DNA from: Seison nebaliae
Lineage: Eukaryota
DNA length: 64,000 bases
Assembly (NCBI GenBank): GCA_023231475.1
Contig: JALJEE010002316.1
Span: forward strand, 124,001 to 188,000
Direction of reading: 5' to 3'
The notes under the pieces were generated by a model. It had not been told where the DNA came from and did not search any database. It saw only the letters and a program-made list of their open reading frames with translations. Position numbers and translations under genes: made by a program. Positions 1,912 through 64,000 of this stretch are shown here, in pieces (position 1 is the first letter of the stretch; each line of letters starts with the position of its first letter).

Positions 1912-3706
1912 ATGGGTATCGCCAAAGGAAAGAAATCGAAAAGTTCGAAAACGATGAAAAAGAAAGTTTACGAGACTTTGTCAATGAAAGACGAAAAATT
2001 TCGGAGATTAATGAATAATTTAGTAGATGATGTATTTGACAAAAAGAAGTTTCATGTTTATGCTGAAGACGATGATGAGGATGGTCGTTTGATTTATTCA
2101 ACAATTCTTAATAAAGTTGTAATTTCTACGAATTAATTCATTCTAATTTGACAAATAGACAAATATAAGTCAAAACAATAATAAATTCTATACAATCCAA
2201 TTATTGGTCGACGACAGACCTCACTATTACGTTTGTCTACATTGGGGTCGTGTACAATACAAAGGACAAAAATCCCTCCAATCTTTCAACGGCAAATTGG
2301 ATAAAGCGAAACAATTCTTTTATGATAAGTTTAAATTTTGCAATTCTTTTCATTGTATTCCTTTTTCTTTAAAGATTATTTGCTAAGTCGGGGAATGATT
2401 CGTTGACAAATATAGAAAATATCGCGAATAAATATCAGATAGTTGAAATGGATATCGATTCGATGATGGAGGCGGAAGAGAAACGGAATGAGAAACAAAT
2501 TGAAATTCCTCAAAGTAAATTGGCAACGAAAATTCAGGAGTTGATTGAATGGATATGTGACATAACAAATTTGACATCGTTCATTAATTTGAAACATTTC
2601 GATGAAGATCGAATGCCATTAGGGAAATTGAGTGAGAAACAAATCTTGAAAGGATATGAAATATTAAAAGATATTGACAAATATTTAAGAAAACATCAAG
2701 CTATTGAAGAAGTTGAAAATCGTGTGTTATTACGAAGTGATCGAAGAAAAAAATTAGAAGTAACCACTTCGTGTTCTCGGAAATCTTTAGACGATTTAAC
2801 TTCCAAATATTATACGATTATTCCACATAAGTTTGGGAGAAGTCGTCCAATAATAATTAACAATAAAGAACTGCTACAATCAGAAATGGACCTACTTAAA
2901 GTTCTATCCGATATTGAAATGGTGAACGAAATGTTTGAAAATAAATTCACAAATGTTTTGAATCCGATCGACAGAAAATATGCTCAAATTGGATGTAAGA
3001 TTACTTTTATCGATAAGTCTTCAAAAATTTATAAAGTTTATTTTTTATTATTTATTCAACTTCGAAAATTTCAATATTTCAACTGTTTATTATTCAGATA
3101 TTGAATGATTATTTAGAACTGAATCATTCTACTGCCCATTCTACTTATAAGTTGGTATTAGAAGAGGCGTTTGAAATAGAAAGAGAAGATGAAATTAGAA
3201 ATTTTGTGTCGATGGAGAATCAAAAATTATTATGGCACGGATCTCAACTCAGTAATTGGGCGGGTATTTTAGGTAAAGGCTTGTTGATTGCCCCAAAAGA
3301 AGCTCCGAAAACCGGATCAATGTTCGACAAAGGAATTTATTTTGCCGACTCATCTAGCAAGAGTGCAAATTACAGTTTTAACAAGTCCAATGTTGGTTGT
3401 CTAATTTTATGTCAAGTGTCTCTGGGAAAGATATACGAAACGTTCTCGGCTGATTATAATGCCAGTCAAACCGTAATAAAAAAAAAATGTGATTCATTAA
3501 AGGGTGTGGGAAAGACAGCACCCGAGCTTTCTACCCACGTCAAAATCGAATTAGACGATGAACTGGTAACTGTTCCTATTGGTCGTTGTGCTAATGTGGA
3601 CAAAATTGGAAAATATTCATTAATACATAATGAATATGTCGTCTACAGTACAAATCAAGTAAGAATTCGTTATCTGTTGAAAATTAGATATGATGATATT
3701 ACTTAA
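1912..3706 (+). CDS. Poly(ADP-ribose) polymerase, PARP2/3-like (WGR, regulatory and catalytic domains), about 547 aa, 4 exons
   Basis: Exons 1912-2115, 2159-2328, 2375-3035, 3098-3706 join in frame. WGR domain (LNKTNISQNNNKFYTIQLL...WGRV), MPLGKLS, YYTIIPH, catalytic LLWHGS, GIYFAD, KSANY, NEYVVY. Start codon uncertain. Confidence 0.93.
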
Positions 3707-3884
3707 AAATTAATATGAATTAAAATATATTTTAATTAAATATTTTAAAATTTTATATTGAATGAATCGTTCTTCAAACGGATAGTTTTTTCTTGGTAAA
3801 TAAAAATGCAAATTTTCAATAGAATGTTACAAAATGTTTCATTTAGATTTCTGAAATTGATTAAGAACAAAAATGGATATCGAA

Positions 3885-5010: not shown

Positions 5011-5255
5011 TATGGAACAATTAAAATAATCTATAATTTTAAGTGTCAGTGTGAGATCGTGAATTTATTCAAGATAATTACGTACTTCGTTATTAAGAGA
5101 GATAAATTTTCGTTTTATGACCATAAAGCTTTTAATCTGAAAATTAGTTATTCCAGATAATTCACGTATTATCTGAATAAGCTTTTTATCCATTTTTCCT
5201 AATTATTAGCATGTTGAACAACAAAATGTGATTATTAAAGAACTACATAACAAAA

Positions 5256-5623
5256 ATGAATTCGAATGAAAAGATTTGTCGTAAAGATCTCATGGAGGAC
5301 ATAATAGCAGTTATTTGAAGCTTTTCTTCTATCTTTAAAAAAAATTTTTTAAAGCTCGGTCGATTTGATAAAGATTCGATTGATCTAAAAATATCGTCAT
5401 TGGAGGAGTTGACCAATCATTCTACTTTGAATCCAAAAAGGGAATTAGATAAAAGTAAACCATATCAACGATTGATGAGAAAGATAGATAAAAAGTTTCG
5501 CTTATTCCATTTCATTTCAACACCATTCTTTGTAGGAGGCGTCGAGAAGAAAGAAAGAGGAAGGTAGATGAATCCTTATCTCCTTCCCAACCGATAACGA
5601 AAGTGACGAAGATCGTTTCTTAG
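5256..5623 (+). CDS. Small basic protein (93 aa, 3 exons), tentatively Ashwin (C2orf49)-like
   Basis: Exons 5256-5309, 5355-5494, 5536-5623 joined by 45- and 41-nt GTT..AG introns give MNSNEKICRKDLMEDIIALGRFDKDSIDLKISSLEELTNHSTLNPKRELDKSKPYQRLMRKIDKKRRREERKRK...; LNPKREL followed by a basic run resembles Ashwin PLPQRDL. Missed by the ORF track. Confidence 0.6.
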
Positions 5624-5765
5624 ACGATTTCCTATTTTCATTTAACGATTATTCAAATTTTTTAAAAATACATCTTGAACGCTGCAAATTATTAATTGAA
5701 TTGATAAGAAAAATAAGAATTTATTTTGTACAGTTTTTTTTCATAAATAAAAATCCTTTCGATTA

Positions 5766-6746
5766 TTAATGATGACCATAAGCTTTTGGATGATCACGAT
5801 TATAATTCGGACTGGGATGTGTCGTATATTGATTATATTGATTGTCATTCGGTTTTCGATATTCTGATTTTGGTGGATCTAATAATCCACCCGATTTACC
5901 CATATTATTTGGCATGATGTTGTTGTTCTTGGTTGGGAGATCGCGATTATCTAATAATGGTTTGTTGATATTTTCTTGTTTGATTGGTGGATTGAAACGA
6001 TTTTCTGGATGGAATAAAGCGGAATAAATTTTTTTATCAATCATATTTAATCGATGCATAATTTGAACGACGGCATAAGCCAATTGTGGATTGTTGAGTA
6101 ATAAGGACTTTGTTTCCGGTTCATAATCATCTTGCATTCTTTTCAAATGTCTTATCACATTTGTTAATTGTTCGGGTGAGGTTTGATTGAGAACGGTAAA
6201 AACTAATTTCTCTGCGTCTTCTTCTCCCACAATTCTACCGTGTTGTCGATATTCATTGATCAATTCTTGATTATCATTCATTTGTTGATTATTTCCGTTC
6301 GTCTTATTATCCATTGACATACTATCCATATCTTCATTATTTCCATGATGATATGAATGATGGTATGGTGACGAATTGTACAACATTCCAGAACCATCAA
6401 CATTATTTCCAGTGGAATTGCTCGTCGAATTATTCATCGGTTGGAGATTGGACGTATTTGAATTATTTGCCCCAGTAGCTCGATCTACTCGCAGATTTTT
6501 CCCGCGGAAATCTTTATTATTCAAAATTCTAATAGCTGCAGTTGCGCTACTCGAATCCATAAATTCACAAAAACCATATCCCTTCGAATTACTTGTCTCC
6601 TTATCCACCATAATGCGGAAACTGACAACCGGTCCGATCGAACTAAAGAATGTCTTCAATTCACTTTCCGTTGCCGACGGTGCAATGTTACCGACGAATA
6701 CTGATCTCGATTTATCATTATCATTTTTATCCTCATTCCTTTTCAT
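5766..6746 (-). CDS. CSTF2: Cleavage stimulation factor 64 kDa subunit (CstF-64/Rna15 family), intronless
   Basis: N-terminal RRM (RSVFVGNI, GPVVSFR, KGYGFCEF, LRVD) plus hinge domain (SLLLNNPQLAYAVVQ). Confidence 0.9.
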   Translation of the reverse strand: MKRNEDKNDNDKSRSVFVGNIAPSATESELKTFFSSIGPVVSFRIMVDKETSNSKGYGFCEFMDSSSATAAIRILNNKDFRGKNLRVDRATGANNSNTSNLQPMNNSTSNSTGNNVDGSGMLYNSSPYHHSYHHGNNEDMDSMSMDNKTNGNNQQMNDNQELINEYRQHGRIVGEEDAEKLVFTVLNQTSPEQLTNVIRHLKRMQDDYEPETKSLLLNNPQLAYAVVQIMHRLNMIDKKIYSALFHPENRFNPPIKQENINKPLLDNRDLPTKNNNIMPNNMGKSGGLLDPPKSEYRKPNDNQYNQYTTHPSPNYNRDHPKAYGHH

Positions 6747-8239: not shown

Positions 8240-9650
8240 ATGCAGATGTCGGTGGTTGATGTTCTCCGAAGGAGAGGCAATATTCATGCAAGTAACTTCT
8301 CCGATTGTTTCACCATTTGTGATGATTGTACATCCAACAAACCTAACTATTCATCGACAAGACTTCCTTCTCATGAGAGTGTCACAACGAAACTATCTCA
8401 TCGAAAATGTGTTGTTGACAAGAAACATACAATAAGTGATGATCCATTACCATCATTATCGATAATTAAAGTTTGGCAATCATCTACATCTCACATTTAT
8501 TTCCATACATATCATTCTTGATCTCTATCCAATAATGATGTTCCAATGTCATTCACTTTTCATTTATAAAATTTGAAAAAATTTCCGAGAATTACCATAT
8601 ATTTCCTTATAAATTATTTCTTAACAATTATGGAATTTATTCAATTTAATTTTTTCTTTCATTTAGAATGAAGTCACATCAACATCGGTGAATGAAATGA
8701 AGAAATTAAAAAACGAAACAAATACATCAGATAACATTCTCTTAATCGATCAATTGATTACCATCAAATTCCATACGTTGATGACATTCAGTCTCATATT
8801 GCCATTCTTCTCCATATTCTTCTGTTTATTCTCTTCCCTGATATTCAAATGGAATGATGTCAACTTTGTCAAATGCAACGTTTATTTTTCTAATTTATCT
8901 ATCGATTATTTTTTTTTTAATTTAATGATCATTTTTATTGAAGGTGGGAAATTTCGTTCCAAGTATCAGTGCCGTTACCGGTATATTTCCACAGGCCTTC
9001 GTCTGGAGAATAGGCATCGGATTCCATTTGGCTCCACGATTTCTCGTCATTTATTTATATTTCAAATTCTACGAAAGATCGTGTAAACATATCGAGAATC
9101 GATTTCCACATTTCCTTCGTTACATCAATTCGTTACTCGTTCTAACTGAGAATATTTGTTTAATACTTGTTACATATGTCTCCAACAAAGACAATTATAG
9201 TTTCATTTATATATTTCAAATTTTTTCAATAATTTAAATTTTTTTAGTTGTACATGAACGATCGTTTATTATGTTTCTGGCCTGCTCACTCCTCCATAAC
9301 ATTACCACAATCATTCTTCACCGATTTTATTGTCCATCGGTAAGTATAGTTTTCATATGATTTGTTTCTTCAATTCAATTTTAGAATGATGAATCGTTAA
9401 GAAGGAAAATATTTATGGCATCCGGTTGCTGGATAAGCACAGCATTTCTCGTCTTTTTCCATCATTTACATATTATAAGCTGTGTTCCCTATGGTTCGAT
9501 TTGATTATTGAAGGAAATTTTAAATTTTTTTCAGCATTCTCCTTGTTCGCTTTCTTCGAGTATATCCTGGTCATATTCAATATGGGCTTCCATTATTCTG
9601 CGTTAGAAGACTTCCCTCATTATCAATTGATGATCGCTCATCCAAATTGA
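8240..9650 (+). CDS. PGAP2: PGAP2 / Frag1-DRAM-Sfk1 family multi-pass membrane protein
   Basis: Exons 8240-8470 (least certain), 8667-8879, 8944-9199, 9248-9339, 9385-9493, 9535-9650. Motifs CNVGNFVPSISAV, WRIGIGFHLAPRF, NYIVHERSFIMF, FAFFEY...NMGFH. Confidence 0.82.
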
Positions 9651-10296: not shown

Positions 10297-10332
10297 TTGC
10301 TCAATTTTTCGATTGTTTAGAATATTTTGAAA

Positions 10333-14947: not shown

Positions 14948-15267
14948 ATGAATTATTTCCGTAAAATCTTCATTATCTTTCTATTGTTATTCGTTTCGTT
15001 AACGAATTCGATGCATTTGGAAAATAAACGATATTTCGGTTTACTAATGAGCAGGAACAATAATGACGCGGACAAATCAAACGATTATTTTCCAATGATG
15101 TATATCGGACAGGACAAACATGTGTCGACATTGCAGAGAATATTAAAGTTTTAATTTATCTCACACATTTTCTTCTCATCTACCTCAATAATTGTAGTCA
15201 ATTGAAAACGGAGACGAAATGGAGAAAACCGAAGAATTATTTCGAGAATCCATATTTGAAATTTTAG
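14948..15267 (+). CDS. Small secreted protein, neuropeptide-precursor-like (2 exons)
   Basis: Signal peptide MNYFRKIFIIFLLLFVSLTNS, then MHLEN-KR-YFGLLMSR. Intron 15148-15197 (GTT..TAG, 50 nt) extends the frame to TAG at 15267. Confidence 0.6.
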
Positions 15268-24702: not shown

Positions 24703-27700
24703 TCAAATATATTCCGTCGTATAATATTTGCTCGTATCTTTCATGATGACATGGAGTGGATTGAATGGTGGAATATTGTTCGATGATGATGTTTCCTTCT
24801 CCTCGCCCTTCAAAAGTTTCGTCTTCTCTGACATTTCCTCTTTCAAATTCTCTTCATTTGTTGGTCTGAGCAGATGATGTCCGTTAGCGGACGAAAATGT
24901 CGATGAAGATGAATAATCAGCGACCAAATGTTTCAACGTTGCACTATCATCCTTGTACTCTTTGGGCGGCTTTTTATAATCCACATCATCAATATCGATA
25001 CCGGCAGAGAATTGTGGATCGCAATATTGTGACAATGACGCCACCGTACTACACACATTATCATCAATCTTCTTTTTATTCTTTTGTTTACATGCGAGAT
25101 AGTTGGCTTGATGTAGAAGTGATTTACATTTATATTCATCATCGATACTACTACTACTAAGACTTGGAGGTAAATTTTTTAAAACTTCTTCCGCATTTTG
25201 AATTGGTGCTAGAAAATGAGATTTTTCAGCTTCGTTAAATGAATTTCCGTCTTCACTGGTCGCCTGTCCTATCGACTGAATTTCATCGAGTAGTTGTGGC
25301 TGACCGAAGGCCGAAGTATTTGAGGAGAATGTCGGCCGTGTAATCATCTGACTTAATGACTGACTATTCGATAACGTATCAGCAGCTGATGGTGCTACCG
25401 CTGTAATTGATGGTTTTAAAGTTTCCGTTGTTGGTTGTGAACGGTCGAAAACGACGATACTTATCGGTCCGATATTATTGTTGCTAGTTATGTTGCCCGT
25501 GTGTGTTGTTCCTGTGTTTGTTGTGGTAATTTTTTTTAGAGTAGAATTATCAATTTCCGATTGTCGAACGGTTATTGTGTGATCAGATATCGGTTGTTCG
25601 TTGTCTTCAGGAATACATGATGATGAATCGAATGTTGGAGGATATTGATTGGAAGTGAGTGGCGTTCTCTTATTTACATTTTTGTTACTTCGATGAATCG
25701 CTTCCACATAACTTCGACGATATTCCTTCGAATTCTTCAATGTATCATTCGTTCCCGTTTCTTTATCTGTTCCCGATCCCTGACTATTTCTTGTTCGCAT
25801 CGAATAATTGGTTGAACCAGATTGTGCGAATTTATTAAATTTTCCCGTTCGATCACTCTCATAATCTGTGGAAGTCAATTCAAAACTCGAATATTCGTCC
25901 GACGCCTCATTCATCGAACTCGATAACGGTGACGGATATGATGACGACACATAATCCAAATGGACCAAATCTCGATTCACCATATCATACATGTCCATCT
26001 CATCGAAAATGAATTCGTTCTCGTACATGGTGGGCGAGGTATTGGTTGCTGCGATGGCAGTTTGAGGTTTCTCTTTTTGGGAGAATTTTGGAAGACTTTG
26101 TTTCCCCAAAAGATTTTCTCTTTCATCATCGATTAATGTTCCATTCGAATCAGCTAATTCGGTGAAATTATTCGTCAAATTATTATTGATGATGTTATTG
26201 ATGTGATTGGAACGATTAAGGAGATGTGTCTTCTCTTCTAAATCGATTGAACGGAATGAATACGATTTATTCTCATCAGACGTTCGATGTTTCGATGTGG
26301 AAATTAATGATTGTCGTTTACTGGAAGATGGATTGATTATATTTACATTCTCCACATTCTCCAACAAACATCTTGATGGATTCTCATCAATCACATAACT
26401 GCCACTACTCGAACTTCGACTTGACGAACTGGTTTTCTGGTCTCGGTCACTCGGATCTTTTCCATTCGTTCGAGGTTGTTGAGAAGCCAAAGAATTTTTT
26501 TTGAAATTTTTCATATAATTTTGATTATTCTTTATCGAATTCTTCGCTAAACTACTTCTTCGACTACCGATGAGTGTGATGGATGAAGAAGAACGTGAAA
26601 CGGAATTCTCAACAATTGTCTGTTTTCCTTCTTTCGTTTTCCCATCAGATTTTGTGGAATAATTCGGTATAATCGGTTTCGTTGTCATATTCGTCTTCAT
26701 CAATTGTTCTTTTTTCATCTCTTGTTGATGATGTAATTGATCGTCATCTTTCTCTAATTGCATATCATTATGCTCGTCTTCACCACGATAAGCTCGAAGG
26801 AATCGTGATTTGGAGACATCAGCGATAAATCGATCAGGTATCATCGATTTATGATCGTCCTTTGCACTAATCGATTGGATTTCTGGTTTTTGTATGGTTG
26901 TCGGAATCGTATCAGGAATATCAATGATTTTCGTTTTACCCGATGATTCCGTTACCTTTACTGGAACTTGTTTATCCGTTGTTGGTTCCACTTTTACCGT
27001 TTCTTGTGCTTTTCCATCTTTTTTTGCTATTAACGTTTTTGCCGCTGCACTTGTCGTACCGGATTTGATACCTTTCGTTGGTTTCTGCATTTGAGCAGCA
27101 CGATTAGTTGCATTACCAATAATTCCTTGTCTAAAATGACGAGGAAGAACAAGAACAAGGAGACGAATGATAAAAAAATTTTTGAAAAAATTTGAAAATT
27201 TTTTAAAAATAAATTAATTAACCTTTTCAAGATGAAAACGATAATAATAATAAAGATGATGATCAATAATGCCACACTGCAAATACATGTAACAATGAGA
27301 AGTTCTAATTAATTGGAATGAGATTTGATGGGGGAGAAAAAGGAAAATTAACCGTAATAACTATGGCTTCTATCATCGACGTAAATCACTTTACCAGTAG
27401 AATTCTTCAATTGATGACTGTCATATCTACTGTGATTCCGATAATAGTTACCCAACATGTCGGCATTGGCAGCGAGACTATCAGCGAAAACTGTGGAGGA
27501 AGGAGAAAATGTTAAATTGGCAATTTAATGATGGAAATGGATGAGATTATTATTTATGTTTATACAAATTATGCTTTCATTCTTCTCTATGATTGATGCA
27601 TTGGACTTGCAACCTCATATCATGCATGATATAAATCGTCATAGATGAAATTGTTGAGGATGATAAATTATGTCATAGACAAAAGAGGATGGAAAAGATA

Positions 27701-39266: not shown

Positions 39267-39814
39267 ATGAAATTGATGAAAATGACTGAATCTTCGACGT
39301 CTACATTCAAAACGAATTTCGAGAAAACTCGTCAAATTTGGAAAGGCATCTTAACCAAACAATATGATTGGAAAGATAAAGTTAAGATTTTCGTAAAATC
39401 GACGAATGTTGAGTTAATTGTTGATTTAGGACGATTTTCTCGATTCCGTCTATTGGGGTCGACAATTGATGGCATTGATAACTGGAATCATTTGGGGTTT
39501 CCTTCCACTCGTCGGCTACATTGGAATATTATTGTTATTTTATTTTCTTATTTCCAATTAAATTCAAATTTCATTCGTTTTCAGATTCATTGCCGTCAAC
39601 ATCGTCACCATAACAATTTACACTAAATTTTTTCAACGAGTCAACGACGAAGATTATGGAGGAATGCTCGAAATTTTCAAGGAAGGAATGGGCGCTTGTA
39701 TCGCCATTTTTATGGTTAATTTTAAATTCTCTCAAAAATTTCTTTCATTTATTTATTTATTTATAGCTCAGTTGGATTAGTTCATTTACATATCACAATG
39801 AAATTGTCATGTAA
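39267..39814 (+). CDS. RAB5IF: RAB5IF/C20orf24 (OPTI, Rab5ip/EMC6 family) membrane protein, 4 exons
   Basis: Exons 39267-39380, 39430-39533, 39585-39714, 39767-39814 give WKDKDDFLDSVYWGRQ...GIIWGFLPLVG...EDYGGMLEIFKEG...WI. Confidence 0.9.
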
Positions 39815-39823
39815 TTCAGGAAA

Positions 39824-40988
39824 TCATCTTCTTTTCCGTTTTAACTTTTTCGATTTATTCGTTTTACTCCTCGTCTAAATTTCGGGAGAATTAAAATTGT
39901 AAAAATTAATTAATAAATAAACTTTCTTCTTCTGCTCCGTTATGAATCCGTCCATCAGATCATTCTGAGTGAATCTCTCATTCATTAATTTCTAAGAGAA
40001 AATTTTAAATTTCTCATTAAAAATTATTTAAAAAAAACTTTCTCAAATTTGGTCGTTGGCAATCGGGAAAAATGTTCTTCTTCATATCTGTCAATCGAAG
40101 TGAAGTGACAATTGAATTAAATGAAAAAATTTGAAACTTCGTTTTCTCTTCCATTATCTTTTTCATTTTATTCGATTGTTGATTATGCTAAAATAAATTG
40201 AAAATTACTAACAATAAAATTGAAATAAATAAAATAAACCGATATCTCTTCTGGTGCATCAGTGAGATATTGATGAATTTCTTTCATAATCGATTTCTTT
40301 TTCAAAATCTGATTATTCTTTTCCGATTCCTCATTCGCTTTTGCTGTTTTCGATAAATTTTCATCTAATTCATAATATAATCATAATACCGTTAATTAAT
40401 GACTAACTCATTTTTACCATGACGTTTTTGGGAGGTACATAAACTGCTTTTTTCATTTCTTCATCATTCTTCTTCGTTTCACTATCATCATATGGAATGT
40501 AGAAATCATCAATATCAATCGCTGTCGATTGTTCTTTCTCTATCTCTTCTAATAAATTGAAAGTAGATATAATTTAAAATAATTGATAAATCGAATTTGA
40601 ATAACTTCGACGATTTTCTTCCAATTTTTTCATGAGATTTTTTAAGTGTAATTCGTATTTTTGTTGAATGGTCGAACATTTATCGAGAGTATATCTGATT
40701 TGTATTAATTCTTCGATTCGTTGAGTGTCTATCGGTTCGTTTCCAATTCGACTACTAACGAAACTTGTCATATTCTTCAAGTAATTGACGAACGAATAAT
40801 TCTTCAAATGAAACAAAGAAGTTTCCTGTTTGGAAAATGGAATAGGGAGAAAAAATGAAATTTGAACGAACGTTCGTTTTCTTCAGATTGTCAAGCGATT
40901 TCTCATTCTTCAATTCCTCAACCAATTTCTTTAAATGTCTTATATTCTTTTCTATCATACATTCCTTATCAGTTTGTTGAATGTCCAT
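39824..40988 (-). CDS. NGDN: Neuroguidin (Lcp5/Sas10 family SSU processome factor), 273 aa, 8 exons
   Basis: Exons 40988-40872, 40825-40606, 40548-40408, 40364-40240, 40187-40138, 40087-40039, 39991-39923, 39874-39824. Motifs LIQIRYTLDK, YVPPK, TDAPEEI, YEEEHFSRL, basic C-terminus. Confidence 0.85.
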
Positions 40989-42543: not shown

Positions 42544-45183
42544 TCATATTGGACAAATTCCACATAATTGGGGACATGTCGCCCTCACCAATGGATGGAG
42601 CACACAATTCACTTTAGTAAACGCTTCATCATCTTTTCCACATATTTCTGGATCTGTATACTTTTGTGGACCTAACGTACTTCGAATGTAGTTTCTTTGA
42701 CTAATTTGAAATTTGTCATTTGCCTTCTCTTTTCCCGATAAGCCGATTAGTCCGCAATCGACTGAAATATGAATTAAATTTGAATCTTAAAATTGAAAAA
42801 ATTAAAAAACTTCTGTCACATAATCGCCCACCGAACAACTTGTACGGACATTGACATTCACATGTGTTCAGATCTAATTTTCCTCCGTTCTTGCAGAAGA
42901 TATTTGGTGGACATGCTGAAATGAATAAAATAAATTTTCGCTTTTCAAAAATTTCAATGGTAACTGCACATGTCGTTTTGACAATTGTTCGGACACATCG
43001 AACAACTTTTACCAGTGAGATATGGTTTGAAACGATTATGGAACGCTTGCCTACAAATATCGAAATGATTTCAATTCTATTTGAAAAACTAACATTTCCG
43101 AATAGAGACAGACATATAAATATTTATAATTCTTATTCTGACATTCAGCCACACTACAACCGATGCGAGAAGTGTCCGCATAAATTATCTAAATAAATAA
43201 TTATAAAATGGAAAAATTTTTTGAAAATTTGAAAATTTCAATTTAACTTGAGAATAATGTCCTACTTTGTGTAATGGAACATTCTCATCATTGTACTTGA
43301 AATATTCGATTTCAGTCGCCCAGGCATTTAACGCTTCTTGCCAATTGTCGAAACCGGCCGCCACATTCTCACCAATCACCACACCATATTCTAAGAGAAT
43401 AAATATCAGATTTTTTTTCTAAATAAATTACTCACTCAATGATTGACGACTTCTTAAAGAATCGGCCAAATCCACTTCACATGTTAACGCTCGGTTTCGG
43501 GCACCTTCTGCTAAAGTATCATCCCAAATCTACAGGAATTTATTCATAATAATAAAACCGAAAGAAATTCAAACAAGTTTTCTCATATTGGCCGCGGTTG
43601 GTCGAACGTCTTGTCGGAGAATGTTGTGATAGTTCAAAATGAAATTTTGTTGGGAAGTTAATAATGTGTCGGCAGATGATCGACTCCTTTGATCCATCAA
43701 ACTGAGAGCCATCGGACTGAACATGATGGTGGGCTTAATAGTGATTTTATTGGGGGAATGATGAGCCGTAATCATTTTCTTCTCTTGCACTTGTATCACG
43801 TTGGAAATTGATGAATCATTCAAAGGAGGTGTCTCGTCTATCGTGTAACCTTTTCTTGGATTCATCATTAATTTATTCGTCGACGGTTTTCCAATTTCTT
43901 GTTTCGATGTTTGATTTGAATGACTCGTATAATTCGAATGTAATCGATACGATTCTTTCGTTTTATTTTGTCCCTTATTATCATTTAATGATAATGAAGA
44001 TTTCTTTGAGATAGTTTTGGTGGGAAATGTCGGTTTTAAAGTCAATGATGATAAGTCCTGATGGTTTTGGTTGACATTATTATTGGCATCATATAATTGA
44101 TCAATTTTCGTCATATTCATTACGAGAAGGTCGTTAATATTTGTGAGATTCAATTGCTTCATGATTTCCGATAATGTCTGTCGGAATTCTGGTGTAGTAT
44201 GTTGGAGAAATTCATTATTATCAGCTGCTGCCGAATTTTCAGATTCATCTAAACCTAATTTTTCTTGGCCTAACGTATCATATAAATAGTCATTGCGAGA
44301 ATTTGGATGGTGTAAATTTGGCGGTTGTTTAAATCCGATCGAGTGCCGATCATTAATTTGGTTGGAGAAAAATTCTTTCTTCATATTCTCCTTATTGAGT
44401 AATTGAGAGAGTGTGGAAGTGGAAGGCGTCAGGTACGTATGATCAGGAGGCAATGCAAAATATGCTGCGATTTGGGGACGCAATCTTAAGTCGCCACTTC
44501 CTAACGGAATATTTATCATCGATTTTTGCATTAACGTCGAATTGACTAAGGACGGTGTTGGAATCAATTTACCAGTTGTGTTAGATATCGTTAGATAACC
44601 TTTATTCAGTAAGTGACTGGTTAAAGAGGCGGCAGTAATATTGGGTAACAACCATTTACTGTTATCGGTATTGGGTTGATGACCATTTTGATTATTGATC
44701 GAATTCAAGTTGAATTGATTTCTATCATACATCGAATCGTCATATGAGAATAGAGAATTAATTCTTGAATGTTGATGTTCTGTATTTGTTGGCTCGTTAA
44801 CATGATACGCCGAATCATAAGCTATAGGGAGATAATCACTTCCGTAATAATTCGACGGGTACAAATTATTTTGAGACAACTTCTCCACATTTTTGTCTGT
44901 GACAAAAAGCGGCTCCAATTGAATTGGCTCTTTAACCGATTGCTTAGACGAATGATGATTATTTTGGATTTGAATATTCTTTCGTTCCAAATCATATTTT
45001 TGTTGTTGTTGTAGTTGTTGTTGTTTCTTTTGCTGATTTATAAGTTGTTGTTGATGTTGCCTTTGTCGTGGATTTAAATTAGGTTGATTTTGTAATTTAA
45101 TTTGTTGTTGTTGTCGTTGTTGTTTTTTCTCTTGTCGATTTACTTGTTGTATTTGATAAGATTTTTGCTGTTGTTTTTGCTGC

Positions 45184-45237
<54 letters not shown>

Positions 45238-47426
45238 AGGAACCATAAAATATTTGGTTCATCGTAATTATCGGTGGATAACGGAGTATCGATTCTATCT
45301 GAATATTCGTCGATTCTCGTGTCTTTTATTATTGTGGTGGTTGGCGGAGGTGTTGTAATGGATAATGGTTTTGGTGTAACATTCTTTTCCTCTTCTACTG
45401 GTTTATATCTACCAAATTGTCTTAACATTTGCCACGAATGATTAATTTCTTCTTTCTTTTCGGGTTTCTTCATTTCTGTGAAATTATTGGTGGGTCGAAT
45501 GAATTCTTGATAGAAGGGAATATCTTTTAGATTCAAATTTATTGTCGGATAATTGATAAGTGAAAGATTGTGATTCAGATGATTATCGGGATGGAGATTC
45601 TTGTTTATAATTTTATCAGTCGACATTTTAACATTCTCTTTTATTTGATCATTTGCGGATGCAAATCTTGCGGCAGCCGAATTCTTTTCTAATTGAATAA
45701 ATGATTCTAATCTGTTCTGTTGTTTTTGTTTCATCATCTTTCGTTTCCGTTTACGTAATTTCTTCCTCCTACGTCGATTCTTTCGATCGCTTTTCTTCCA
45801 ATTCCAATAGCGGATTGGACTTGTCATTATTTGGGGGGAAGTTGTCACTTGAGGTGTTGGTGTGAGATGTGTATCAACTTGGACGAATTGATTGGGATAA
45901 TTGGAGATATTAAAATTCTGATAATTATAATTATAAGACGGCGACATATCGTTATTATTTGAATCGAATTGATTCGTGTCATATTGTTCGGTAAAGGCAT
46001 ATTGATTATATTTGGGAGGAGATGTGACATGCCAATAATCTTTATTTCTTTCCTTTTGGAAATTGGGAGAATTTGAAATTTTCAACGGTGTCGGTATGGT
46101 AAATGGTCTGATTGTGGTGGTAATCGGCGCAGCTTTAGTAACGAAATGTACTATTGGAGTTCTCGTGGTCGTTCTTCTGACATAGTTTTGTTCCTGATTA
46201 TTGAAATGATTATTCCTCATAAATTGATTAGGAAATTGTTGATAAGTATCTTGCCAAGTTGGTGCCGGTTCCATTGCCGGTCTGACGCCAACAGACAATT
46301 GAAGACAACCTGAAACGACAGCAAATGTACAACGTTGAGTGATTGGACTAAAATTAAGATTTCGCGGACAACGTCGTCGGAATTGTCGAGCGAAAATTGT
46401 TCCAGACCAAACACATTCATAATATTCGTTACAATTATAAGTGTTCTGATATAATCCGTCTTTGATACATTTATGTTCGAAATGACTCACAGATTGGCGA
46501 TTACCATTTGGAACTTTGATATTTTTCTTAACTGTCAGTTTAATATCCACTGGTCGATTGGCCGGCAAAGGAATAGAGAAATTACGATACTTTTGGAAGA
46601 ATTCTTCGATATTACGTGCGGTAGGCATCGTTGGAGTCTGTTGGAGTAGGACATGTTTCCCATACAAATACGGCGCTAAGGAAGAAGATTTTTTAATGAA
46701 TCTAATTCTTTGTTCATTAGCTCGATCTTTTGTCAACGAATAATCATCATAATTCTTTGACGGTTCTAAATAGAAGTCTTGGGATTCCGCAGTTTGCTGA
46801 TTATCATATTTGTTATTAGATTTGAATGATTTCAAATTTGCTAGAAATCGTCGATTATTATCTGTTAACGGTTTTGTATTTGCCGGATCGATGGTTTGTG
46901 TTATTGTGCTTGAGACGGATGAAATTGTATGAAGCCTAAGTTTCTTATTCCGCGACTGATTCGTAGAGAGAGTTGTTGTGGGAAATGCTTTTTTTGATAT
47001 AGTAAACGGAGTGGTGGCGATAGATGTTTTGTGTAGAATCGATTCGGAGGTGGAGTTCTCTCGTTTAACGTATAAGGTGAAAGGAAGATATGAGAAGTAT
47101 TTGGTACCATTGAAATTTCTTTTTTTAATTAATCCGATACGTTTAGTGGCTGAACTCTCTTTCTTCTTCGAATAGATGAAAGCTTTCTGTAATCGTCGAG
47201 TATTTTCGTATTGTTTATATCGATTGTATTGTGTAATTGGAGGTTTGGTCGATACCTGATATTTGGTCAATGGGGAATTTGCTTTGGAGTTCTGGGGTTT
47301 CAATTGACTCAATTTCGAATTGATAATTTCCCATAACTGATGTTGGGCGGATGATGAATGAATACTTTGATTATTAACGACCAGTTGAAGTAGTATGAAT
47401 AAGAAGAAGTATTTCAAATAGGACAT
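42544..47426 (-). CDS. Large secreted protein: signal peptide, chitin-binding type 2 (CBM14) domain, polyQ/low-complexity spacer, CAP (SCP) domain, EGF-like and ShKT-like domains
   Basis: Exon 1 47426-43575, then 43529-43436, 43390-43248, 43188-43094, 43050-42965, 42915-42811, 42761-42544. CBM14 six-Cys pattern at 46305-46469; CAP motifs YHNILR, ANMRKLIWD, GENVA, GHYSQII..T.RIGC, YVCLY; CKNGG..CECQC; CPQLCGIC at the C-terminus. Confidence 0.85.
45175..45237 (-). repeat. (CAA)n microsatellite encoding a ~21-residue polyglutamine tract
   Basis: Pure (GTT)n on the + strand within the CAP-gene exon. Confidence 0.95.

Positions 47427-49916: not shown

Positions 49917-49947
<31 letters not shown>
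49917..49947. repeat. (ATT)10 microsatellite
   Basis: Directly visible. Confidence 0.9.
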
Positions 49948-54617: not shown

Positions 54618-57600
54618 ATGAAGAGTATCCGGAGACATACAGTTTCTACCGGTTTCTATGGTAAATTTGTGATGAACAATCTATTCTACGACGATTCTCA
54701 TTCATCTCGTATCCGTTTGCTTATTAATAATCGCAAGCTGAAAAAAAATATCTGTCGAAGTAATCTACCTATATGTGAGAAGCGAATGGATAAGTTTCAT
54801 AATATGAACTGCATCTTTAATCATAATAATGACGATGAAGATGATGTATCGGAATCACGGATGATAGAAACGTCGAACAACCATCTGAATGTTGAAGAGG
54901 AGAATCATTGTCGAACCAAAATGTCTTCTTCTCCATTAGTTTCACGTAAACGTAAAACAACCGCGAAATATGACGAACGAAAATCGGAAGAGATTCATCG
55001 AAACAAACCGAAGGAAACGTCGATGGAAATAAAGTTTGATGCGAAGGATCAATTGACGAGAAAAGAATTATCGGGGAAATACCTTGAATTATATTTCACA
55101 ACTCTTTTCTTTCCCTCAGATAATAAGTTAACAATGAAATTATTCGGTAATAGGAATGCACTTTTGAAGGAGAAGATGCGGCAAGAGAATGTTGGTCATT
55201 GGATCATCCATCCTTGTAGTAATTTCCGGTTTTACAATCTCTTCCACCATTCAACTCTAATCAACTTTTCAGTTTCTATTGGGATTTGTTAATGCTAGGA
55301 TTATTAATGGCAAATCTAATTATATTACCGGTGGCAATCTCATTTTTTAATGACCGACATTATCCTACCAAATGGTTAACATTCAACATATTCTCCGATT
55401 CCTTCTTCATTCTCGATGTGGTCGTTAATTTTCGTACAGGTTCTCATTCATATATTAAATTATTTCTTTTAAATAATTTATCATATATTCATATTGATTT
55501 ATTTATTTATTAAATTTCCCATTCATTCACTCCCATTCATTCACTCCCAACATTAACGAAGGTATTTTAACTAATGATTATGCCGAAGAAATAATATTGG
55601 AACCGAAAGCAATCGCCAATCATTATTTACGAACTTGGTTCGTTATCGACATGTTGAGTTCGTTACCGTTGGACTACATCTTCATCATATTCGAAGATAC
55701 TGATACCAATTCGAGTTATGTGAAAACGGGTCGTGCATTCAAAGTTCTCCGATTGACCAAATTGATCAGTTTATTGAAGTTGTTGAGAGTGTCACGTCTC
55801 ATTCGATATGTTCGTCAATGGGAAGAGGTATTGTATTTATCATTATTAAGAGATTTATATGGTTTTTAATTTTCTTAAGTTTTTAAGTGTCGCTGGAATG
55901 GTTATGAGAATATTAAATTTAGTTTGTTTAATTTTACTATTGGGTCATTGGAATGGTTGTCTACAATTTCTCGTTCCAATGTTACAAGATTATCCAGAAG
56001 ACTCTTGGGTAATTCTCGATAATATAAAAGTAGAATTGAATTAAAAGATTATGTTAATAATAATGTTTTTAGGATGAGACTTGGTTCATCCAATATACTC
56101 ATTCGTTGTTCAAAGCATTGTCACATATGTTATCGATTGGTTATGGGAAGAATGCTCCTCGTACCAATTCCGATATGTGGATGACAGTGTTAAGTATGAT
56201 GCTCGGTGCGACATGTTATGCGATAATGATTGGTCATGTTTCCGCTCTAATTCATAGTTTCGATGCTTCGAAAAGAATGTATAACGAGAAAGTTTATTTC
56301 TTTCTATTCCATCAAACCGTTTAACCATTTCTAGTATAAACAAGTGGAGGAATATATGGCTTGGAGGAAATTACCGAGAGCGATGCGGAAACGTATTCGT
56401 GATTATTATGAACATCGATATCAAGGGAAAATGTTCGACGAGGAGAATATTCTCAACGAGATATCGGAAAGATTAAGAGAAGTTAAAATTTAAATTTAAA
56501 TTTCTCCATTTTCCATTGTTAGGATGTCTTGAATTATAATTGTCGCTCTTTGGTGGCGAATGTTCCGTTTTTCGCTAACGCCGATCCGAATTTCGTATCT
56601 GATGTTGTCAACAAACTCAGATATGAAGTTTATCAGCCATGTGACATTATCGTGAAAGAAGGAACGATAGGAACGAAAATGTATTTCATACAAGAAGGAG
56701 TGGTCGACGTTTTAAAATCGGATGGAGAAGTGTTCACTTCCTTAAGTGATGGTTCTTATTTCGGAGGTTATTCTTTTATTTTTTAAATTTATTTAATTTA
56801 GATTTTTTTTAGAAATTTGTTTATTAACAAGAGCTAGAAGGACGGCTAGTGTTCAAGCGGTGACATATTGTCATTTGTTTTCTTTGTCCATCGAAAATTT
56901 CAATATCGTTCTCGATCAATATCCATTAATGCGACGTACGATTGAATGTGTTGCGGCGGAGAGATTGACGAAATTAGGGAAGAATCCGAACGTGATTAAT
57001 TCCAGTGAAGATTTGAGGAAAGATCAAGAATTGATGAATGAAATAATTGAGCAGAATAGTGATGAAGCGAGAAATCTCATTTCGAACTATTTGGATGTAA
57101 TGCCAATGAAAAGTTTAAATTTTTTTCATCTTTCAAAATAATTTTAATTAATTTTAATTTAATTAAATTTAAATATATTTTTTAGGAATGTTTGTTGATG
57201 AGAATTTAGAGGATTATTTAAATGGCGCCGTCAATGCCGATTCGACCAGTACTCAATTTAGTCGTCATCCACCCAAAATGCAGACATCATTTGCGCTAAC
57301 ATCTCCTGACAGTTCATCCATTCGCGCCTTTAAACGACCGACAGTCGACTCGAAGATTATAAATAGAACGGGATCATTTCTTCGATCGAAGAAGTTGTTC
57401 ATTCCGAAACAAACACACGCATTCAGTGAAGATGATCTCTCCATACCTTATATCGACAGTGATGCCTCATCATTTGAAGGATCGTGTCGCAATTCGTTAG
57501 CACCAAACCGTCTGTCCAGTTCGCTGTCAGTCGATTTTCTACATCGATTATCGGAGAAGAAACGTCAAAATAATTCAAAAAAAAATAAATCATTGAAAAC

Positions 57601-59440
57601 TTGTCGATATCATGAACAGACGAAGATTCAAGAATTGAGAAATAGTTTGAAAATTAGTCGTCAAAGTCTCTTCAATCATTTCCGTACCATCAGCGAATCG
57701 TACAAAATCCGGAAAACTCTGGTGCAAACTAATTCGGAAAAGAATTTATTAAAACCGGCCGTTCAAGATGAAATTACTTCTCATTTATCACCATTCCAAA
57801 ATAGTGGAATTGCCAATGTTTTCCGCTCGTCAGTTTTCCATAAAATTGGTGATGTCATTACTGCACCGAGATATGCGCTAAAAAAAAGTAAACCATATTC
57901 GAAACCGGTTTTGCTTAGAAATGAAACGAAACAATTAACATCGATGGACAAGATTTCTGTGTATAAGAATTGTCTGAATCCGTATGATAAATTTGTTTCC
58001 GATTCACATAAATCCAATTTGAGGCGTGATGATAATTCGATGATATCGATGGCGAAAGATGACGTTCTATCAATCAGGAATTGTTATCGACGTTCAACCG
58101 AATATACGATGCCTAGTCAACGATCAAGTGGATTGTCGAATACATCTGATTTGATTGATAATCAATCAATCTTCCAAACTAAATCATCACTTTCCGATCA
58201 AACACTCAATGATGATGATATCGAAATGAATCCGAAAGATTCAGTTGGTAGTAAACATTCGGAGAAGAAGAATTTATTTCGAAAAACCATGAGTAAAATT
58301 CTCCCGATGATTAAACATAAGAAATTATTGAAAGAAAATGATTCATCGTCAAAAAAATCATCAATCGCCTCACTCACTAGACAAAATTCGATCATCATCA
58401 AACAATCAAGTCAAAGTACGATATCGTCACATCATCGAAATGAGAAATGTCCAAATCCAATTATTACGATTGAGAATGAAGAAGTCGATTTGAATAAAGA
58501 CGATCATCAACTAAATGGTAAATGTCGACAATCGATGATTGGTCCATTGAATAAATTTAGAAATATCGTTCGATCTGTTGGAAGTAACAGTGCAATTTTG
58601 GAGGAGCATAAAACGGATGTTGTGGAATTGGATTTAGAGAATAATCAATCCTTATTTTCCGGTGATGTTGGACGTCGTTTAACGATTAGTGAGAAATTGA
58701 AAAGTCGAAAAATTGGATCGACACTTTTTAAAACTCCGAAAAATCAACCACTTCAAGCCACCGTCGATGCTCAAGGTGTCTATCAGAGAAAGTTACGTTC
58801 CACCGAAGATCCCGCCATGTTATTCCATATGTTATTGACACCGGATGAAATATCAGCAGAAAGTGAAATGCAACAAAGACAACAATTATTACAATGTAAT
58901 CTTCCTTTTTTACAATTGGCGAGAAATACTTCATTCAATTCTTCGAATAATCTCAATGAATTGAATGAGAATTCCTCCGTCAAATTGGAGGATGGTACGT
59001 TGTCTCCAAAATTCCAAAGTTTTCGACAATCAAAATTCAATGTGAATGATGAGAACGAATCTATGATACAACAACCACTCATTCATACGTCGAATAATGA
59101 ACTGTCCAATTTTCAAAATTTTACAGATAAATTTGATGAAAGTGATTCGAATTATAACAAATTAACACAAACTAATTTAAATCGATGTTTCCGAGTACCA
59201 TCCGTTCGCATTCAAACCAACTCCACTACTCAACATTACGACAACTTATTTCAAAATCCTTCATCCAAACGACCAGCTGCGGAGAATATTCTAACAACCG
59301 CATTACAAAACCGTCTCAAAGACGCCATTGATATAGTGGAACCGAAAAGTTTAGGCGAAAAGAAACAATTTGCAACTATTGCTAGAAATATTTTGAGGAA
59401 ACAGAAAACTAATTATTTGGGAGTGCAAGAAACCGAGTAA
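54618..59440 (+). CDS. HCN: Hyperpolarization-activated cyclic-nucleotide-gated (HCN/Ih) channel, 9 exons, ~750-aa C-terminal tail
   Basis: Introns 55229-55272, 55440-55561, 55828-55879, 56030-56072, 56292-56334, 56482-56522, 56767-56812, 57113-57185. HCN domain [24 protein letters not shown]4 [20 protein letters not shown], pore [29 protein letters not shown]. Confidence 0.95.
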
Positions 59441-60262: not shown

Positions 60263-61092
60263 ATGAAGTCGATGTGGACACAATCGATTCGGAATTATGC
60301 GAAACGAATGAGAAGTCCAAAATTTGTCGATTATAAATCGGGAGACAAAGTTGGACTGCCGATTGTGGAGAGTGAAACGATTATGAAAATTTCTCAAAAT
60401 TCTCAGCCGAACATGTTCCATCATTTTGTTTTTCTCAATAATTTTATTTTAAATGAAAGATTTGAAGAGAAATTAAAGAAATTATTTTCCTTAGAATATC
60501 ATCGGAAAGTTCTCCTTTTTTCTCTTTTCATTGAATTCAAACGAATCTTTTCTTAAGAATGAATTGTATAATTGGCAAGAAAATATGCTCGTCTCTTTAG
60601 TCTCGCCCAATTTGAACGACGAAAACGACGTTGGTGTACAAATAGCGAAATTAACAGGACGAATTCGTAAAGAGATTGTCCATCATCAGGAATTGAATGA
60701 AGTTCATAAAGGTCTTAATGAAATTATCTTTTAAATGAATTTAGGATGGTTGGGCGTCAGCTGTTTGTCGAAATAATGTAATGAGACGGAATGATTTATT
60801 GTCAGAATTACGACGCCTGGATAAGGACCGTTATGAATACATTAAATCGATATTAAAAATTGATCATTATATTCCTGGGGAATACTCACGATTCAAGATG
60901 ACAGTACATGGACGTCGACGATGGGAATTGAAGCAATTAGCTCATAATTATCGGATGTACAAATTAGAGAGATTGAAAGAGGAATCGAAAGGGAAACAAG
61001 AAGAATTTGAAAAATATAAAAAGAAGAAATTGAAAGAGATTAATAATCGACTGAAATTAATTGGATTGGAATGTTTGCCTGAAAATAAATAA
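60263..61092 (+). CDS. MRPS15: Mitochondrial small ribosomal subunit protein uS15m
   Basis: Introns 60415-60459, 60509-60557, 60702-60744. Presequence, KKLFSLE, VQIAKLTGRIR, RRNDLLSELRRLDKDRYEYI..LKI. Confidence 0.75.
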
Positions 61093-61386
61093 ATTTCTTT
61101 ATTCTTCTTCTTATCATACTCACACCGATGGATGGATTGTGTGTTTGTACAAACGAAAATTTCTACATCCACACAATCCTCCAGTTAACGATGTGTTGAA
61201 GCGAAATAATTATTCACATTCCATACTTCCATACGAGTAACTATTTCTATCAACTAATTAAAAAAGATGACTGATAATCATCAAAATGATACTTTGGTTT
61301 GAGTAAATCGAAAAAATCTAAAAATCTTCTTTATATTTTTCCAACATTGAAACGAATCGAATAAATTGAATAGTTTTTAAAAAATA

Positions 61387-64000
61387 ATGGACGGGAAAAT
61401 TTGTGTGATGTCGGAAAGTCCTCTTTGGATCATAAAAGTTCATTTGAAATTTAATAATAATTAATTTTAATTAAATAATTTTTAATTTTAATGTTAATTG
61501 TGGAATAAAGTTAGCATCGACTAATGCAAAAAAACGATTTGAGAAAGAAATCAAGAAATGTCCAGAAAAACTTTATGTCCATGATTCCCAATATCGAACA
61601 TGTGCACATGTTGCTGCTAATAAGGGATCGATTGACGTATTGGAAGTCATTACAAAATTGGATGGAAGTTGAAAATTTTAAGATTTTCATAATTATTATT
61701 CACATTATATAATTATAGAGATGTTGAATATGTTGGATAATAACGGAAACACACCATTATTTTCAGCGGTGGAAAACGACGAAGTTGAAATTGTTCAATT
61801 TCTTTTAGGACAACATGTGATAGAATTAAGACATCTGAATAATGATGGTCTGCGCATCGTGACATATGCCGTGGTCAATCATAAGATGAATTCATTAGAA
61901 GTTATTTTGGAATTTAATACCAAATTAGAATTTGAATTTTTCAAGTGTTTATTAAAATCGTCAAGAATTAGAGTTGACGAAGTAGATAAATGGGGAGATT
62001 CGGCTCTACATTATGCTGCTAGAAATAATTGGAGGACATCTGCTAATATTTTGGTTTGAGAATTTGTGGAATATTTCAAAAGAATCAACATCTTTTCCTT
62101 CAGTTAGAATCTGGTGCTGATATGTTTCTGTTAAGTAAACATGGTAAAACTCCGTTTCATTTAGCCGCTATGTATGTGTCGAATGATGTACTAGAAGAGT
62201 TTTTCCGTGTTGCTGAACTTAAAGGATTTTCTCGAGATGAAGTGATGGAATTCACTTGCAACGAATCTAGTCAACCATTACATTCGGCTGTCAATAGTGG
62301 TTCGATTGAAGCGGTCAATCTTTGCTTGTCACACAATAGTCGAATTACCAACACATTAGTTCTACTTTTGGAATAATTTGAATAAATGATTAATTAATTT
62401 GAATTTGAATATGGTTTTGTAGGATGATAAATGTACACCCGTCCATCTGGCCTCCATGTTGGGCTCATATGACATTTTAGATCTTTTATTAAGGAATTCC
62501 ACTGAAGACACTTCGACAGTTATGGAAATGGTGGATCTTCAAGAACAAACGCCACTTCATAAAGCCGCAATGTTCGGTCATTTGAATGTCTGTCAATTAC
62601 TTCTTCTTAATGTTAGATCAGAATTATGATGAAAGGATTATTATTATTACTACTCTAGAACGCAGCGATAGATGCGAAAGATATTAAAGGTAGGACGCCG
62701 TTGTTATTAGCTGCGAGGAAAGGCGCTTATTCCGTTGTCCAACATTTGCTCGACCATCCCGACGGAAAATTGAATGGCTTCGACTACTTAGGCCGAAATA
62801 TTCTTCATTTACTTATTCAAAATAATGCCCAAGATTTCGAAAGAATTCAATCATTAATTAATTCTGTTGCTTTCTCACTCATTCAACAAATTTATTATTC
62901 TTTTCGTTCTAGAGACCATCATTATTGAAATTATTAAAACTAACAGATAATAACGGAAATACACCGTTACATTATGCTTGTGAAATCGGCTGTGTTGGTA
63001 TGGTCGATGTTCTCATTAAATTGGACGACGATATTTCCCCAAAGAATAAAGTTCTGCTTTTTTTTTCATTTCTCATCGATATTCATTTCTGATTTTACGA
63101 AAGAATTTGAAAAGTCCGTTACATTTGGCGGCGGAATTCGGCAAATATAATGTCTGCGAATTATTGTTAAAGAATAGTGGTGGGAAGAGAAATATGGTGA
63201 ATGAGATCGATAAGAATGGATTTACACCGTTGCTCTACGCTTGCAAGAATGGAAAGAATAAGTTAATCGATCTCCTCTTAGAAATGGGAGGAATTCTATT
63301 AAAGTTTTTTTTTCTTGTTTGAATTTTCCATAATTTTTTTGAAGAGATTTCGAAGGTAATACTGCCATACATCATGCTGCGAGTGGTGGCCATTATACGA
63401 CAATCACAAAATTATTAAAAACACACATTCATCTGATCAATTCGGAAAATGTGGTGAAAGTTTTGTTACATTTTTTCATTCATAAATTGTTTTCAATTGT
63501 TTTCAAATACAATTTGTCCATTTTATTCTCAAATATAATTAGTCCATTTTATTCTAAAATACAATTTGTCCGTTATGTTTCCAAATACATTTTATCCGTT
63601 TTATATTATATTATTGTCAAATATAATTTGTTCATCCTTTCCATTTCTTTTTAGAATACGGCCTTACATTTAGCAACGCTCAACAATAAACCGAATATTA
63701 TTATTTGTTTAATGAGTTATAAAGAGATTCGATATAGCAGGAATGCGAATAATCAATTATTTATCGATCTCGCTATCGAATTGTCATTGGAAGATTGTTG
63801 TAATGTGGTAATTAAACATAATTCGTGGAAAACGATTCTTACAATGGATTCCTTGAAATATCGAACGCCCTTTATTGGCATGATCGAACGATTACCCAAA
63901 TGTGCTCTAGTTATTATTTTGCCTTAATTTGAAAAGAACAAATTTTCATTCATAGAATGCTTTGGATCGATGTTATCAATCATCAAATCAATTACCTTAT
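61387..64000 (+). CDS. TRPA1: TRPA1-like channel, N-terminal ankyrin-repeat region (runs off the window)
   Basis: More than 12 ankyrin repeats (GNTPL, SALHYAA, TPFHLA, PLHSAV, TPVHLA, TPLHKAA, SPLHLAA) joined by 11 modelled introns, followed by the TRPA-type linker W...TPFIGMIERLPKCALNALDRC. TM region lies outside the window. Confidence 0.8.
63505..63603. repeat. 26-bp tandem repeat (~4 degenerate copies) inside TRPA1 intron 10
   Basis: Unit AAATACAATTTGTCCATTTTATTCTC. Confidence 0.75.

Follow-up and report, generated by a model that had tools for sequence, protein, structure and literature searches.

Animal genes have few features as stable as the purine at the third intron base (+3) and the G at the last exon base (-1), and the question raised here is whether these still mark the 5' splice sites (donors) of the rotifer Seison nebaliae. 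We analyzed a 64-kb stretch of its genome (contig JALJEE010002316.1, positions 124,001 to 188,000; hereafter the window) together with three deposited Seison proteins and homologues, with introns modelled from DNA. The window is animal DNA of 32% GC, and the deposited proteins SNEBB_008734 (HCN), SNEBB_008735 (TRPA1) and SNEBB_008731 (NGDN) align to it at 100%. We confirmed that about nine in ten of the introns modelled here start with GTT and not with the animal-typical GTA or GTG, and the splicing machinery of Seison likely reads intron starts by an altered rule. A marine rotifer with an epizoic life, Seison (Seisonidea) is related to the acanthocephalans (PMC8351084, PMC12256650); published work is cited here from passages of the papers concerned.

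Our curated set holds 51 introns from 11 genes, all of them GT..AG, with no internal stops in any gene; removing the introns restores the reading frame. They are short, with a median of 48 nucleotides (nt) and 46 of 51 within 41-64 nt. The original prediction had placed GTT at 49 of 54 introns, about 90%, and this estimate held with three of those introns left out: +3 is T in 46 of our 51, A in three, G in two and C in none (T 90%, Wilson interval 79-96%), so that the purine of the consensus AG/GTRAG is present at only 5/51. Our counts per gene differ from the predicted ones at PGAP2 (3/4), the lectin receptor (3/4) and TRPA1 (10/10) and are otherwise equal. We left out the first lectin-receptor intron (GTTGAA near 30348), for which the trial model contained stops, and, at TRPA1, the first intron (GTTCAT near 61437), for which our own model took GTCCTC at 61418 and the deposited model differs, while the fifth PGAP2 intron was not recovered. 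Set against intron interiors in the window, which are 50.9% T and 30.6% A, T at +3 is in excess (p=2.4e-9), in keeping with the original prediction, and A is depleted (3/51, p=2e-5). The donors are otherwise diverse, with 30 different hexamers and GTTTGT at 0/51.

A blind gene model, which combined codon statistics of nine long open reading frames (ORFs) with a length prior and left +3 to +6 unmodelled, returned 30 GTT, two GTA and one GTG donors at a posterior of at least 0.9 (30/33) and GTT at 39/52 at a posterior of at least 0.5; across the window GTT makes up 39% of all GTN. When +3 of the 30 GTT donors was rewritten to A or G, 30/30 were still recovered, and the blind model therefore has no bias to T. 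Its intron composition and length prior were derived from 21 deposited introns. The posterior was about zero for donors 8880, 9494, 27352 and 27222, and the lectin-receptor intron at 29022 (1532 nt) exceeds the length limit of the model, so these calls come from frame or Pfam continuity only; four deposited introns had a posterior below 0.5. The deposited models match our calls at 28/28 introns compared, and 26 of these 28 begin with GTT (HCN 6/8, MRPS15 3/3, TRPA1 10/10, NGDN 7/7), a count that excludes the deposited intron at 61073 (442 nt, GTTTGC), which belongs to an MRPS15-TRPA1 fusion. At NGDN, the predicted use of GTTAGT at 40407 in preference to a GTAAAA 10 nt upstream was borne out by a seven-intron translation identical to the deposited protein.

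The HCN gene allowed the donors to be scored by homology. A hidden Markov model (HMM) of 40 non-Seison HCNs, which scored all stop-free GT/GC..AG options within 60 nt, picked the deposited donor at 7/7 core introns (five GTT, two GTA); at intron 3 a 25-nt GAG-acceptor option beat the deposited acceptor by 2.7 bits and left the donor unchanged. Such scoring of alternative donors was confined to HCN; protein searches with TRPA1 and NGDN matched nothing but Seison's own protein. There is also a hint that spare GTT near real acceptors is avoided: among unused GT whose use with the real AG would yield an intron of 41-64 nt, GTT accounts for 5/25 vs 53/125 elsewhere (one-sided p=0.03).

Beyond +3, the donors fall into two classes. 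Positions +4, +6, +7 and +8 are at intron background (chi-squared p 0.28, 0.35, 0.49 and 0.07), and G is enriched at +5 (10/51, 3 expected, p=7e-4); the proposal that +4 to +6 are nearly free thus stood for +4 and +6 and failed at +5. All of the +5G donors follow exons with ends other than AA or AG (10/23 vs 0/28, p=9e-5), an exclusion that holds with any one gene dropped (p<=0.0011) and among the deposited introns alone (0/18 vs 4/10, p=0.01). The weak exon ends also show +4A at 12/23 and GTTAG at 4/23 vs 0.4 expected, and the claim that these donors lack a U1-complementary extension consequently applies to the AA/AG class and not to the others. Since the enriched G sits at +5 and not at +6 (8 and 4 of the 46 GTT donors, 2.7 expected), the register is normal, and the pattern is the ordinary U5/U6 see-saw of Parker et al. 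in its usual positions.

The exon side has changed as well. As predicted, exons usually end in A and not in AG: -1 is A in 31 of 51, G in 12, T in 6 and C in 2, and -2 is A in 33/51 vs 19 expected. G at -1 is at chance (12/51 vs 9.5 expected from coding composition; like that for -2, this expectation was computed before one coordinate correction), so that Seison has lost the preference for -1G; the -1G that remains leans to the non-GTT donors (p=0.08). Canonical U1 pairs weakly: real donors have a hydrogen-bond score of 12.2, compared to 10.8 in decoys and 16.7 at the HCN donors of other animals. Among the 51 acceptors we counted 31 TAG, 10 AAG and 10 CAG, so that AAG is frequent and TAG is three times as common as CAG. 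The branch-point motif YTRAY occurred in 22/51 introns, about as often as in shuffles (20.9), in a set one intron off the final one; a more degenerate motif may be present. U12-type introns carry the donor motif RTATCCT, which is absent from the 51 hexamers, and ZMAT5 is scored missing from Seison in the published BUSCO table.

To place Seison among other animals, we used an HCN alignment to scan metagenomes, which gave 79 loci, of which 72 were spliced-aligned and seven long-span loci were left out. Eighteen loci were assigned to bdelloids by 92-98% identity to Adineta/Rotaria proteins, and a quick tree, with Seison on a long branch, joins these loci to Seison (Shimodaira-Hasegawa-like approximate likelihood ratio test 98). 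Their 43 distinct donors have T at +3 in 22, A in 19 and G in 2, at 56% T in the introns, and keep -1G in 35/43; non-rotifer loci have +3 T at 8/69 and -1G at 59/69, and the single Brachionus-like locus has GTT at 1/4. The bdelloid donors come from only seven intron positions, several of them invariant (T throughout at 458, A throughout at 409 and 378), and the Fisher p=5e-5 vs Seison therefore overstates the evidence. Seison introns after HCN residues of about 144, 198, 286, 336, 409, 458 and 539 are also present in metagenome HCN loci; at 198, 458 and 539, GTT is found in Seison and nearly all bdelloids, and other animals have it at 3/18 for 458 and 0/8 for 539. GTT in bdelloids follows an exon-final G, not A. 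The likely order of events is that +3 was relaxed first in rotifers and was then fixed on U, with loss of -1G, in Seison.

The same scan yielded two side observations. In the aligned core, the bdelloid-like loci L002, L004-L007 and L009-L011 have a single intron, that after residue 286, compared to up to seven in other bdelloid loci, which points to the loss of nearly all introns in some lineages or gene copies. A GC donor (exon-final AG, then GCAAGA) recurs at or near position 497 in the copepod-like loci L017-L019, L030 and L038.

The best explanation, which we put forward tentatively, is that the U1 small nuclear RNA (snRNA) of Seison carries A and not U at position 6 (predicted core ACUAAC) and has co-evolved with the GTT donors. 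The +3 base lies opposite U1 position 6 at first and opposite U6 G44 (PMC9803359) at a later stage, and with such a U1 the major spliceosome would read +3 U positively and in the normal register. Donors of the AA/AG class, with +4 to +6 free, would be held by the A-rich exon end (through U5 loop 1 and U1 positions 9-11) together with GUU, while GUU donors behind other exon ends, with +5G at 10/23, would gain from further pairing of +4A/+5G to U1 and U6. The remaining information would come from the narrow 41-64 nt length, by intron definition, and the change would have followed a relaxation of +3 already present in the rotifer lineage, as the roughly half-GTT HCN donors of bdelloids suggest, before fixation on U in Seison. 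Since A at +3 lies below background, something must favor U: were a canonical U1 simply relaxed, A would stay at 30% or more, because A pairs with U1 position 6 and would not be depleted. GTTAG is the exact complement of the predicted A6 core, and GTTAGT, present in three copies, would be a perfect site. In separating real donors from 112 decoys, the A6 U1 reached an area under the receiver operating characteristic curve (AUC) of 0.80, compared to 0.63 for canonical U1, in a comparison fitted post hoc.

Several points weigh against a U1 of this kind. The AUC comparison is circular, since any rule that rewards +3U scores well. A U1 gene is not among the features of the window, where Rfam gave zero matches at gathering score or E<=1. 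Canonical U1 is kept by most lineages whose donors are altered: Saccharomycotina (PMC10581693), Giardia and Trichomonas (10.1101/2022.06.08.495308), and also an animal, Fritillaria (PMC13326754). Two perfect canonical GTRAGT donors persist, GTAAGT (9340) and GTGAGT (43435), and the sample is 51 introns of one window, modelled from DNA. At phase-0 Lys/Glu/Gln codons, -1A (16/18) shows no significant rise over codon usage (p=0.17), which leaves a second U1 change, at position 9, unsupported; adding C9U to the model U1 gave an AUC of 0.86, which we do not claim, as -1A is no higher than codon usage.

A less probable but serious alternative leaves U1 canonical and loosely bound and moves donor choice to the U5/U6 hand-off, where exon-end A would meet the U-run of U5 loop 1, U+3 would lie opposite U6 G44 (as a wobble or facing a changed U6 base), and U6 would lack N6-methyladenosine (m6A) through loss of METTL16. 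In the BUSCO supplement of PMC12256650, METTL16 is Missing only in Seison and present (one fragmented) in the other 24 syndermatans, although a BUSCO scored missing may reflect divergence, 76/954 being missing from Seison but from no other pararotatorian in the comparison. Mutants of C. elegans in mett-10 move to U5-class donors, such as AA//GUUGU and UG//GUUG (PMC11347140), Fritillaria combines canonical U1 with low U6 m6A (PMC13326754), G44 of U6 does face +3 (PMC9803359), and donors of the AA/AG class make up 28/51 in Seison. METTL16 loss is, however, tied to +4U, and the literature passages link METTL16 to +4 and not to a +3U preference, whereas +4 in Seison is A in 20 and T in 19, if anything A-leaning (p=0.10), and 6/10 +5G donors carry +4A. 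SNRNP27 is scored complete in the published BUSCO table, as are PRP8, PRP3, PRP6, PRP31, Dim1, SNU23, MFAP1 and SF3B1. The registers of U5 loop 1 are disputed (PMC8283771).

It is unlikely that snRNAs are all canonical and that a protein reads U+3, be it a diverged U1C or Luc7, a U-binder of the TIA-1/Nam8 type or an altered PRP8/SF3B2 contact. U1C is highly diverged in Entamoeba (10.1101/2022.06.08.495308), and SNRNP40 and SPF45 are scored missing in the BUSCO table, so the Seison spliceosome may be remodelled; the signal is nevertheless limited to one base, which would be easier to square with base pairing than with a binder of U-rich sequence, and the BUSCO table, as searched, gave no row for U1C, U1-70K or Luc7.

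Shifted pairing is reportedly a feature of rare human GUUAAGU sites, where Roca and Krainer in 2009 are said to have found U1 displaced by one base. Applied to Seison, a canonical U1 in this register would pair A-1 with U10, G+1 with C9 and U+3 with A7 and would account for -1A and +3U jointly with U1 unchanged, yet we think it quite improbable. The shift raises the AUC to 0.73 from 0.63 in the normal register, +6G occurs in 4/22 GTT donors behind AA (p=0.04, post hoc), and the lean of -1G to non-GTT donors fits as well. Over all GTT donors, however, +6G (4/46, 2.7 expected) and +5A (15, 14.1 expected) are at chance, the enriched G sits at +5, and GTT in bdelloids follows G.

The remaining two readings we regard as highly improbable. 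That donors are merely GT plus a T-rich background, defined by length, is consistent with the background composition at +4 and from +6 to +8, the narrow length range and the bdelloid sample (22/43 GTT at 56% intron T), but it is rejected on this window by 90% vs 51% T (p=2e-9), the depletion of A and the +5G see-saw; likewise, length-based intron definition as the sole rule, which the original prediction had offered as one possibility among several, does not account for T far above background and A depleted at +3 with weak canonical U1 pairing. That GTT is a product of the modelling, with other donors in use or the intron kept in the living cell, might be suspected from models built on DNA, one deposited model that fuses two genes and a blind model tuned on deposited introns, but is countered by the blind 30/33 and its full recovery after rewriting, by the agreement of the non-Seison HMM and by HCN intron positions that coincide with those of other animals.

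Transformed donors are already known. In Entamoeba, the one +3U lineage for which we found U1 described, donors are GUUUGU(U), 88-90% GUUUGU, in intron-poor genes, with a co-evolved U1 ACAAAC, and Mastigamoeba is a further precedent (10.1101/2022.06.08.495308). Seison shares the near-universal +3U (46/51) but differs in its intron-rich genes (up to 10 introns per gene here), its 30 hexamers, none of them GTTTGT, and its loss of the -1G preference. Parker et al. described two donor classes, AG//GUNNN (U5) and NN//GURAG (U6) (PMC9803359, PMC11732430); exon-end A-purine and +5G are mutually exclusive in Seison too, but its classes are AA//GUUNNN and NN//GUUNG, with +3 U in both. Loss of METTL16/SNRNP27K goes with +4U donors in Saccharomycotina (PMC10581693) and, for mett-10 mutants, in C. 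elegans (PMC11347140). Seison resembles these systems in a METTL16 scored missing (by BUSCO only) and many U5-class donors, and departs from them in showing no +4U shift, retaining SNRNP27 and changing at +3. Like Fritillaria borealis (PMC13326754), Seison is an animal with donors that match canonical U1 badly; unlike the non-canonical splicing of that species, GT-AG is kept in 51/51 introns and one inner position is changed.

The modelled genes are listed in Table 1. The middle exon of the 93-amino-acid (aa) gene had no Pfam match, nor did its earlier label of 'Ashwin-like' have Pfam support, and a Pfam scan of the single-pass membrane protein gave no lectin match. SNEBB_008735 joins MRPS15 and TRPA1 through the 442-nt intron at 61073, which is probably an annotation error, because MRPS15 carries its own stop at 61092. 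Interspersed with genes of 3-10 short introns are long intron-free ORFs, and intron loss per gene looks all-or-none: housekeeping ORFs of this kind lie at 5766-6746 (CSTF2-like), 15832-18435 (2-oxoacid dehydrogenase E1/DHTKD1-like), 18803-19516 (SDE2), 19824-24410 (SMC4-like, 1528 aa) and 41395-42315 (pyridoxal-kinase-like). The CBM_14/CAP protein has 1530 aa, with a 3.85-kb first exon (chitin-binding CBM_14 and a poly-Gln tract), a C-terminal CAP domain and a Cys-rich tail, and may have a role in attachment to the crustacean host. RAB5IF (+) and NGDN (-) are convergent with stop codons seven bases apart (39816 and 39824), and their 3' untranslated regions must therefore overlap the opposite gene. 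The blind model made no confident gene call in two long tracts, about 30500-38800 and 47500-54600, while the rest of the region is compact.

Table 1. Genes modelled in the window, with donor positions, first six intron bases and evidence (positions count from the first base of the window)
Gene or feature	Position and strand	Introns or donors	GTT	Evidence
PARP (WGR, PARP_reg, PARP)	1912..3706 +	2116 (43 nt, GTTGTA), 2329 (46 nt, GTTTAA), 3036 (62 nt, GTTTAT)	3/3	Pfam, blind model, frame
93-aa gene	5256..5623 +	5310 (45 nt, GTTATT), 5495 (41 nt, GTTTCG)	2/2	Blind model, frame
PGAP2/Frag1	8694..9650 +	8880 (64 nt, GTTTAT), 9200 (48 nt, GTTTCA), 9340 (45 nt, GTAAGT), 9494 (41 nt, GTTCGA)	3/4	Pfam Frag1 on two exons, frame
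89-aa secreted peptide, hydrophobic N-terminus	14948..15267 +	15148 (50 nt, GTTTTA)	1/1	Blind model, frame
Single-pass membrane protein ('lectin receptor' in the original prediction); 5' end unsettled	24703..30303 -	29861 (47 nt, GTGATT), 29022 (1532 nt, GTTAGT), 27352 (48 nt, GTTAAT), 27222 (92 nt, GTTAAT)	3/4	Frame only
RAB5IF/EMC6-family	39267..39816 +	39381 (49 nt, GTTAAG), 39534 (51 nt, GTTATT), 39715 (52 nt, GTTAAT)	3/3	Weak EMC6 match (E=0.019), blind model, frame
NGDN (SNEBB_008731)	39824..40988 -	40871, 40605, 40407, 40239, 40137, 40038, 39922	7/7	Seven-intron translation equals deposited protein; Sas10_Utp3
NGDN intron 3	40365..40407 -	GTTAGT after exon-final GA in use, not GTAAAA 10 nt upstream		Posterior 1.0; deposited protein
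CBM_14 and CAP-domain secreted protein	42544..47426 -	43574 GTTTGA, 43435 GTGAGT, 43247 GTTAAA, 43093 GTTAGT, 42964 GTTACC, 42810 GTTTTT	5/6	Pfam, blind model, frame
HCN channel (SNEBB_008734)	54804..59440 +	55229 GTTTTA, 55440 GTTCTC, 55828 GTATTG, 56030 GTAGAA, 56292 GTTTAT, 56482 GTTAAA, 56767 GTTATT, 57113 GTTTAA	6/8	Deposited protein maps exactly; non-Seison HMM
MRPS15	60263..61092 +	60415 GTTCCA, 60509 GTTCTC, 60702 GTTCAT	3/3	Deposited protein, Ribosomal_S15
TRPA1-like ankyrin channel	61517..64000 +, continues past window	61668 to 63910; first intron ambiguous	10/10	Deposited protein, Pfam

We found no description of a donor consensus for Seison or any rotifer in the open-access literature (subscription papers lie outside this coverage), nor did look-ups yield an earlier animal case of GTT donors, and in the passages of the Seison genome paper (PMC8351084) and the two supplements searched by term, introns are mentioned only as a matter of gene compactness. 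Donor transformation as such is known from Entamoeba; what is new here is an intron-rich animal in which one inner position has switched and the see-saw has been kept. Wholesale donor changes are known from intron-poor protists, or from tunicates with an unchanged U1. It is possible, if on balance doubtful, that U1 5' pairing has changed (A6, perhaps U9) with the donors genome-wide and that U6 m6A has been lost, in which case an animal splice code would have been rewritten in successive steps of rotifer evolution, the bdelloids representing a relaxed intermediate. Software for gene prediction or splice strength that was trained on other animals can be expected to mis-score the Seison genome. 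With monogononts, bdelloids and acanthocephalans, all with public genomes, forming a graded series, Seison makes it testable whether U1 and many introns can co-evolve, and through which intermediate.

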